Origin: Escherichia coli
Lineage (GTDB): Bacteria; Pseudomonadota; Gammaproteobacteria; Enterobacterales; Enterobacteriaceae
Length of the DNA: 1,812 nt
NCBI RefSeq assembly: GCF_003334255.1
Contig: NZ_QOWU01000148.1
Reading direction: 5' to 3' (one strand)
Shown: positions 2 to 1,812 of the stretch, piece after piece
How the letters are laid out: every line of letters starts with the position of its first letter
Numbering within the stretch: position 1 is the stretch's first letter
Made by a program: the position numbers and the translations under genes
The notes under the pieces: model-generated
The model's database searches: none
The model's input: only the letters and a program-made list of their open reading frames with translations
Told to the model about the DNA's origin: nothing

Positions 2-1812
2 AAGCACAAACGCGAGAATCCGCCCACGGTGGTATCGGAAGCCATGGCAGAACTTCGCGCCCTGCCCTCGTTTCTTGCCAGTCCGCTCATCCGGGACCTG
101 GCTCGCCTGAGCCGCAAACAGGAGAGCGCACGCCGGGAAGGGCTTAAGAATAACAGCGCATATGCGGCGGATAACTTCGTTCGTCATGGGCTGCGTGCCC
201 GCCTGAAACGTATCGCCCGTGTGAATGAACGCTTTGCCACCCCGGCCTTTAAGGCCACCGCCGCCCGCGAACGGCTGGATGAACTGCTTATACTGCCGCA
301 GCTGAGCCGTGACGAAATCCAGCACCTTGCCACCCTGACCGCCACCGCGTTTTCCGCCGCACTGGAGCGCGCATGTGATGAGATCATCGAAAAGACCGGC
401 AGGGGTGACGATGACCTGTTCACCTGGTTACTGACCTACCAGTCACTGGCACACATGGCGTTAAAACTGGGTATCACGCCACCCTGCTGGCCGTCGCTGG
501 AAATCAGGCCAGACCGCCGCACCGCCCCCAACCCGGAACGGGTGCCGGGTGCGGTCATGCGCCTTTCCTGTGCGACATGGTGGAACAGTCAGTTAAGACA
601 CCTCCGGGACATCTGGCGTGAAGAGCTGTTACGCGCCGCAGGTCTGGTGTCACGTAAGACATCGGTATATATCAGCCATGAAGCGTTACTGGACTGGCGC
701 GAAAAACGCCAGCGCACCCGCGATTTTCTGAAGGCCTGGGACATCGAGAACGAAGAGGGAGAACGGTTCAGCCTTGAGGATATCTACTGGGCAGGTCTCT
801 CTAATCCGCGTAACCGCCGTAACGAGATGATGACCTGCGCCCGGGGAATGGAGCAGGTCGCCGAAGCACGCGGCGACGTGGCGTTTTTCGTCACCGTCAC
901 AGCCCCTTCCCGTTTTCACAGCGTGAACGATGACGGCAGTCTGAACCCGAAATACTGCGGGGCAACGGTACGCGATGCCAGTGATTATCTGGTTTACCGC
1001 TTTTTCGCCGCCGTCCGCAGGGCCATCGACAAGGCCGGGCTGGGCTGGTACGGCGTGCGCACAGTGGAGCCCCACCACGACGGTACACCGCACTGGCACA
1101 TGCTGGTATTCACCAGCCAGGAAAACGAAGCCCGTATCACTGAAATCATGCGCAACGCCGCCATCAGGGAGGACCGCGCAGAGCTGGGTGATGATATCTC
1201 CCCGCGTTTTAAATGCGAAAAAATCGACCCGGCAAAAGGCACACCGACAAGCTATATCGCGACCTATATCGGTAAGAACCTGGACGCCAGCGCCTTCATG
1301 GGAAATGACCCGAAAACCGGCAAACCTTACATCGATAAGGAATCAGGCAAAACCATGGCCGAAACCGTGGAGAACGCCATCGGCTGGGCAGGCCTTCACC
1401 GCATCCACCAGTTCCAGTTCTTCGGTATCCCGCCCCGCCAGGTATGGCGCGAACTCCGCCGCCTTGCCGGGCAGATGGCCCGTAACCCGACTGCCCCACA
1501 GCGTCTGGACCATGACGACATTGACGCCATACTGGCCGCCGCCGACGTGGGATGTTTTGCCACCTATATCACCCGCCAGGGTGGTGTGCTCATTCCCCGC
1601 AACACGTACCTGGTCCGCACCGCATACGAAACTGCCGAAGAGGCCAACGACTACGGCGAATTCCCGCAACGCATTTACGGCGTCCGCGCCCCGTTACTCG
1701 GGGAGCGCTACACCATATGCACCCACCCGGACACCTGGAAACTGGTCAGAAAAGAAGCGAAAGCCGACAACAGCACGGACGAGGATTTTGACGTTGGGGG
1801 CGGCTTCGCCGC
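2..1812 (+). CDS. Replication initiation protein, rolling-circle HUH nicking endonuclease of the phage P2 gpA / 186 A family ('replication endonuclease'); partial, open at the 3' end and probably at the 5' end
   Basis: Seen in sequence: frame 2 is open for 603 consecutive codons with no stop (manual translation begins KHKRENPPTVVSEAMAELRALP and ends TDEDFDVGGGFA). It contains, in canonical order, motif 1 FFVTVTAP (881-907), the HUH motif HWHMLVF (1091-1111) and the paired-tyrosine motif YIATYIGK (1253-1276). Every ORF in the supplied track overlaps this frame on the other strand or in another frame. Established knowledge: this motif order with a Y-x-x-x-Y catalytic pair is characteristic of superfamily I rolling-circle initiators (phiX174 gpA, P2 gpA). 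Inference: P2 gpA is ~760 aa with the catalytic tyrosines around residue 450 (from memory); the pair here is at window codons 418/422, so the true start is likely a few tens of codons upstream and the stop a few hundred nt downstream. An in-frame ATG at 44-46 is a possible but unproven start. Confidence 0.9.
1091..1111 (+). other. HUH metal-binding motif (His-hydrophobic-His followed by hydrophobic residues) within the replication initiator CDS
   Basis: Codons cac tgg cac atg ctg gta ttc translate to H-W-H-M-L-V-F in the CDS frame, preceded by EPHHDGTP. The position between motif 1 and the tyrosine motif matches the canonical layout of rolling-circle Rep proteins. Confidence 0.75.
1253..1267 (+). 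other. Paired catalytic tyrosine motif (Y-x-x-x-Y) of the rolling-circle initiator
   Basis: Codons tat atc gcg acc tat translate to Y-I-A-T-Y, followed by I-G-K-N. Two tyrosines separated by three residues and followed by a lysine two residues later match the phiX174 gpA / P2 gpA active-site arrangement (established knowledge; alignment not run). Confidence 0.7.

Follow-up and report, generated by a model that had tools for sequence, protein, structure and literature searches.

Three copies of the heptamer CTATATC in a 1,812-nucleotide (nt) stretch of Escherichia coli DNA (RefSeq assembly GCF_003334255.1, contig NZ_QOWU01000148.1; hereafter, the window) are very probably a consequence of the encoded protein sequence rather than a signal in the DNA itself, the first two being the codons of the predicted Y-x-x-x-Y active-site pair of a replication protein of the phage P2 gene A family. 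The heptamer occurs exactly three times in the window, always on the plus strand and always in frame as xxC-TAT-ATC, which encodes Tyr-Ile; copies 2 and 3 lie within the peptides ATYIGK and ATYITR, respectively. The extended 9-nt word ACCTATATC is found twice, at 1262–1270 and 1562–1570, with a spacing of 300 nt. These coordinates and the encoded peptides agree with those given in an earlier annotation made from the letters of the window (hereafter, the sequence-only reading), which had considered a coding coincidence of T-Y-I and Y-I codons, an internal peptide repeat, and initiator recognition or nick sites. The coding explanation is borne out, two of the copies being the codons of the predicted catalytic tyrosine pair. 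A related word, GTATATATC, is also present as had been reported; it is located at 665–673, one base away from the 664–672 assigned to it. The four sites are as follows:

1252–1258, plus strand: CTATATC copy 1, AGC-TAT-ATC, encoding S417-Y418-I419; the initial C is the last base of the S417 codon.
1264–1270, plus strand: CTATATC copy 2, ACC-TAT-ATC, encoding T421-Y422-I423; the initial C is the last base of the T421 codon.
1564–1570, plus strand: CTATATC copy 3, ACC-TAT-ATC, encoding T521-Y522-I523, on a short predicted helix (residues 519–525).
665–673, plus strand: GTATATATC, GTA-TAT-ATC, encoding V222-Y223-I224; the fourth invariant tyrosine, followed by isoleucine.

Since Tyr (TAY) and Ile (ATH) codons are unavoidably rich in adenine and thymine (AT-rich), Tyr-Ile dipeptides would be conspicuous in a gene with a guanine plus cytosine (GC) content of ~60%, as measured for the window. 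Once TAT and ATC are the codons used, Tyr-Ile would read xxC-TAT-ATC whenever the codon preceding the tyrosine ends in C.

Frame 2 is open on the plus strand across the whole window (bases 2–1810), without a stop codon, and specifies a 603-codon product. This product matches the Pfam family PF05840 (Phage_GPA, “Bacteriophage replication gene A protein”) with an E value of 2.9e-106 over amino acids 104–429, covering positions 1–320 of the 321-position model, and PHROG 91 (“nicking at origin of replication”) with an E value of 5e-218; among NCBIfam models, no match was found. Nucleotide identity reaches 98.8% in the closest DNA relatives, genes of E. coli prophages that carry the annotation “replication endonuclease”. 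Megablast with the window against a phage collection gave no hit; among named phages, P88-like Xuanwuvirus come nearest (57% protein identity). At the amino acid level, the window protein is 35% identical to the A protein of P2 and 37% identical to that of phage 186. Within it, an HUH metal-binding motif was located that aligns to the HWH at positions 399–401 of P2 A and does not vary in an alignment of 55 diverse homologues. By homology, the window gene is thus read as the central part of a P2 gene A–type HUH rolling-circle replication initiator, for which nicking and covalent attachment to the 5′ end are predicted. The corresponding features are:

2–1810, plus strand: internal fragment of a P2 gene A–family rolling-circle replication endonuclease, 603 codons, open at both ends.
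1091–1099, plus strand: HUH metal-binding motif H364-W365-H366, encoded by CAC-TGG-CAC.
1244–1282, plus strand: codons of the predicted helix 415–427 (PTSYIATYIGKNL), which bears Y418 and Y422; rolling-circle motif 3, Y-x-x-x-Y, as placed by an AlphaFold2 model and by alignment to P2 and 186.

In the alignment, Y418 and Y422 of the window protein correspond to Y450 and Y454 of P2 A (numbered by our own count on the P2 protein) and to Y442 and Y446 of 186 A. The P2 motif Y450-I-A-K-Y454 and the 186 motif Y442-V-A-K-Y446 represent motif 3, or “motif C”, of two-tyrosine rolling-circle initiators. The segment S-Y418-I-A-T-Y422-I-G-K-N of the window matches G-Y450-I-A-K-Y454-I-S-K-N of P2 column for column, with the HUH motif upstream at the equivalent position in a protein of the same Pfam family. 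A difference is seen at the residue before the second tyrosine, which is Thr in the window and Lys in both P2 and 186; the second copy reads CTATATC because it is the Thr codon ACC that precedes Y422. According to a passage in PMC3986222 that cites Odegrip and Haggard-Ljungquist (2001), the two motif C tyrosines are among the active-site residues of P2 A.

The AlphaFold2 model of the window protein (mean predicted local distance difference test score, 89.5) places the histidines H364 and H366 on a strand (residues 363–372) and both Y418 and Y422 on a single helix (residues 415–427). Histidines on a strand and tyrosines on a helix are the standard HUH arrangement. The two tyrosines would face the same side of the helix, and the 12-nt spacing of copies 1 and 2 follows from their separation by four residues, i.e., one helical turn. 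In two-tyrosine enzymes of this class, the tyrosines alternately form a covalent 5′-phosphotyrosine link to the nicked origin strand, and membership in the family predicts such a catalytic role for Y418 and Y422. Compared to other two-tyrosine HUH nucleases, the phiX174 gene A protein and the Rep domain of the Helitron Helraiser, the window protein is much larger and has long helical N- and C-terminal regions. No sequence similarity between the window protein and solved structures was detectable, and Foldseek returned nothing significant. The three heptamers are ordinary and already explained, two of them being codons of the predicted catalytic pair of a known enzyme family.

Copy 3 encodes a tyrosine, Y522, that lies 100 codons after Y422 in the clade of the window only, which is why the 9-nt words there are exactly 300 nt apart. 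Along with Y223, Y418, and Y422, Y522 is invariant in the 92 usable homologues described below. Its surroundings (window 1556–1576, amino acids 519–525) follow the motif A-A-A-D-x-G-x-[WF]-A-x-Y-x-x-x-Q-G-G, and those of Y223 follow the motif Y-[AVI]-S, the next residue being Ala, Val, or Ile in homologues. Y522 is outside the Pfam match and Y223 is inside it; both are outside the HUH and Y-x-x-x-Y motifs. We know of no function assigned to either.

Conservation of the heptamers was assessed in a codon alignment of 92 homologous genes (80 IMG/VR loci, P2, 186, four phages, and six E. coli prophages). One further locus, L092 (CP025874.1, Escherichia phage 503458, unannotated), was left out of homologue counts because its gene A homologue contains frameshifts or in-frame stops around the first catalytic tyrosine; the homologue is likely defective, or else the record contains sequencing errors. 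An exact CTATATC was found at sites 1, 2, and 3 in 24, 11, and 4 of the 92 homologues, respectively. All four carriers of the third copy are at least 94.5% identical to the window at the protein level, and it is only among relatives with at least this identity that the three copies occur together. The clade with 83% identity has no copies or one, with TAC at site 1, and the clade with 78% identity has TAC at the third site and hence lacks the third copy. At the Y522 site, TAT and TAC were counted in 39 and 45, respectively, of the 84 sequences of our first alignment. The codon following each of the tyrosines varies among homologues as well (ATC, ATT, ATA, GTN, or ACN). Most homologues read AAA-TAC-ATT at site 2; since the codon before the tyrosine is usually the Lys codon AAA, the leading C of the heptamer is lost there. 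The 300-nt spacing is likewise specific to the clade of the window, and spacings of 249–288 nt are observed in other clades. Homologues thus keep the amino acids and vary the codons, and the heptamer is not conserved beyond what the protein requires.

The same picture was obtained when conservation of third codon positions was scanned along the whole gene in 82 distinct homologues (898 windows of the scan). The heptamer regions scored 0.62 and 0.58, ranking 76 and 140 of 898. The top two ranks (both 0.96), the strongest signal in the gene, were occupied by the stretch containing the replication origin, which is considered below.

How unusual the heptamer appears depends on the null model. When dinucleotides were shuffled, a procedure that takes no account of coding, 0.04 copies of CTATATC were expected versus 3 observed. 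When the protein was held fixed and synonymous codons were permuted, the expectation rose to 0.65 copies (P ~ 0.012), and for ACCTATATC, it was 0.35 versus 2 observed (P ~ 0.027); both P values are post hoc and each refers to one hand-picked word. Repeated words as a class are not in excess: the window contains 16 exact 9-mers that occur twice, ACCTATATC among them, versus a codon-permuted expectation of 17.7, and 14 heptamers with at least three copies, CTATATC among them, versus 17.2. The totals of repeated 9-mers and triple heptamers therefore match the codon-permuted expectation. The genuine enrichment is at the protein level, where 5 Tyr-Ile dipeptides were observed versus 0.85 expected (P ~ 0.001).

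Several observations weigh against an explanation by coding only. CTATATC is ~5 times more common than synonymous permutation predicts (3 versus 0.65 copies), and this residual excess arises because TAT is favored at Tyr-Ile sites over other tyrosines: TAT is used at 4 of the 5 Tyr-Ile sites of the window versus 2 of the 12 other tyrosines (Fisher P = 0.03). In the clade with at least 78% identity, whose sequences are not independent, TAT accounts for 59% of tyrosine codons before Ile and 13% (13 of 96) elsewhere. These counts leave formal room for a weak, lineage-specific effect at the nucleotide level.

One form of such an effect would be a lineage-specific mutational or translational bias, i.e., a preference for the TAT-ATC codon pair that keeps the heptamers in place without any role of the DNA in protein binding. 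The codon counts above and the residual excess over synonymous permutation speak for it, yet the trend is opposite in distant homologues, where TAT makes up 32% of tyrosine codons before Ile and 55% elsewhere, which rules out a general TAT-ATC preference across the family. In addition, the clade sequences share ancestry, so their counts are not independent, the sample amounts to four sites, and three of these four sites have reverted to TAC in the clade with 83% identity. We consider a bias of this kind unlikely; shared ancestry probably explains the context-dependent choice of tyrosine codons in the lineage of the window.

A stronger version, in which TAT-ATC pairs at the invariant tyrosines are held by selection acting on nucleotides or on translation in this prophage lineage, appears very unlikely. 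Such selection might operate through a decoding step programmed to be slow or fast during folding of the active-site helix or through weak secondary contact between the cis-acting A protein and its own coding strand. If real, it would account for the use of TAT at 4 of the 5 Tyr-Ile sites although TAC is the preferred tyrosine codon in the rest of the gene. Counting against it, the state is lost in the sister clade with 83% identity and reversed in distant homologues.

The sequence-only reading had also flagged the heptamers as candidate sites of recognition or nicking by the initiator, within an origin embedded in gene A. Its premise is correct: the origin of P2-family phages lies inside gene A, as stated in a passage of PMC8537503, and a hairpin of this origin is present in the window at 1800–1812. 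The rarity of CTATATC under dinucleotide shuffling also seemed to favor the proposal. The origin itself, however, is elsewhere. GenBank rep_origin features place the nick of P2 at NC_001895 position 29892 (experimentally mapped) and that of 186 at NC_001317 position 28576 (placed by similarity with P2), and both annotated nicks are within ...CTC-GG-AGT(C/T)CTGTCAATAACTGT. When aligned to the window, both sites fall just past base 1812, directly after the last residues that the window encodes; copy 3 lies ~250 nt upstream of this point, and copies 1 and 2 lie ~550 nt upstream of it. In terms of P2 codons, the heptamers align to codons 449–455 and ~548, and the nick aligns to codon 620.

The end of the window, GGCTTCGCCGC (1802–1812), aligns with P2 GGCATCGCCGC; the next bases in P2 are GCCTCGGAGTCC (GCCTC-GG-AGTCCTGTCAATAACTGT). 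The end of the window thus corresponds to the bar in P2 GCGGCATCGCCGC|GCCTCGGAGTCC, in which the nick is annotated at the GG. All close relatives (L003–L009 and L083–L088) continue past the homologous position with [A/C]CCTTGGACTCGTGGCAATAACTGT, and the nick of the window gene is accordingly expected, by alignment, 6–7 nt beyond base 1812. Inside the window, a 24-nt nick consensus had no match at up to three mismatches; an 11-nt nick core had 5 matches versus 4.1 expected, which is chance level, and none of them was at the heptamers.

The heptamers thus lie 250–560 nt upstream of the nick site, and the nick sequence that homologues conserve (CCTYGG-AGTTCTGTCAATAACTGT or CCTTGG-ACTCGTGGCAATAACTGT) bears no resemblance to CTATATC. 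The heptamers are not conserved as nucleotides even at 83% protein identity, and the synonymous-site scan picks out the true origin, not the heptamer sites. Neither a hairpin nor any other DNA structure was found at the heptamers; the predicted DNA fold of the two regions is unremarkable (z scores of 0.17 and −1.38). Promoters and terminators were also absent from the heptamers, the sole promoter-like hit in the window being at 1219–1191 on the minus strand and at chance level. The two outcomes that the sequence-only reading had named beforehand as fatal to its proposal, homologues that conserve the amino acids without the nucleotide repeat and a mapped origin that aligns elsewhere, are those we observed, and because of them, we reject it on sequence evidence; the chance that the heptamers are initiator recognition or nick sites is close to nil. 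The cis-acting origin is, on the alignment, the conserved nick sequence predicted to start just past 1812, preceded by the hairpin at 1800–1812.

Direct repeats of the iteron type were considered and dismissed: successive copies are separated by 12 and 300 nt, the latter in one clade only; relatives with 83% identity have not kept the repeats; and the number of short repeats in the window does not exceed that under the coding null. An internal duplication of a protein segment, of which ATYIGK and ATYITR would be the remnants, is hardly credible either, even though a 12-nt stretch encoding A-T-Y-I is common to both sites with one mismatch (GCGACCTATATC and GCCACCTATATC): BLASTP between the two 83–amino acid segments gave an E value of 1.7 without pairing the TYI motifs, most homologues read AKYISKN and AGYVNAQ, so that the shared A-T-Y-I is specific to the clade of the window, and the predicted contexts differ (a long helix, 415–427, after a strand versus a short helix, 519–525, between helices).

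The origin-proximal end of the gene contains one more feature:

1800–1812, plus strand: GC-rich hairpin GCGGC-TTC-GCCGC, directly 5′ of the conserved nick sequence and running to the 3′ end of the window.

In most homologues, a hairpin with a 5- to 8–base pair (bp) stem and a 2- to 4-nt loop ends 3–5 nt before the GG (homologous positions are, for example, 2875–2887 in L001, 4556–4571 in L002, and 3234–3246 in L004). Of 44 distinct sequences, 32 form a perfect stem of 5 bp or more, compared with 4.6% of 24-nt background windows in the same genes. Folded as single-stranded DNA, the hairpin has an energy of −8.2 kcal/mol in the clade of the window, −6.0 kcal/mol in P2, and −9.9 kcal/mol in 186. 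We counted 14 distinct stem sequences, and the amino acids they encode differ between clades; pairing has therefore been kept through compensatory changes. The hairpin is missing from a few homologues (L011, L014, L020, L038, and L069).

Conservation of the nick sequence across P2-like phages has already been published, as passages in PMC3986222 and PMC8537503 indicate. In our set, the nick-proximal sequence exists in two variants. The first, AGTTCTGTC (AGTCCTGTC in P2), contains GG-AGT(T/C)CTGTCAATAACTGT and is found in P2, 186, and most IMG/VR loci (e.g., at 2893–2912 in L001 and 4576–4595 in L002). The second, ACTCGTGGC, contains GG-ACTCGTGGCAATAACTGT instead and is found in the clade of the window and in P88, Shae_phiSM, and Cartapus (3370–3389 in L003, 3252–3271 in L004, 2978–2997 in L090 and L091, and 2930–2949 in L093). 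The part CAATAACTGT is common to both. The variants track clades of the initiator protein, which suggests co-evolved origin specificity.

The 3′ end of the window also differs in its ancestry. Positions 4–1812 are 98.8% identical to the E. coli prophage L083, and for the last 213 nt, the identity to complete E. coli genomes is only 93% at most. A scan of genome_contigs for an exact 45-mer gave no match. A 33-mer at 1754–1786 has exact IMG/VR matches only in contigs with an overall nucleotide identity of ~80–83%; these contigs are the members of the clade with 83% protein identity (L004–L006) plus L097 and L098. This pattern implies that the window is mosaic at ~1740–1812, with a putative recombination junction in the vicinity of the origin, toward the 3′ end of gene A.

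For sequence-only scans in general, our results carry a caution. Catalytic motifs rich in Tyr, Ile, Asn, and Lys produce AT-rich “repeats” in GC-rich genes, and such repeats far exceed dinucleotide-shuffle nulls, while codon-aware nulls leave a marginal, post hoc excess. Conversely, a scan of synonymous-site conservation recovers the P2-family origin without prior knowledge of its location. Overall, a false origin candidate is removed, and the AT-rich word is seen as the DNA footprint of Tyr-Ile at a known two-tyrosine active site. The hairpin and the two nick variants may in turn guide experimental work on the specificity of origins among P2-like phages and prophages.

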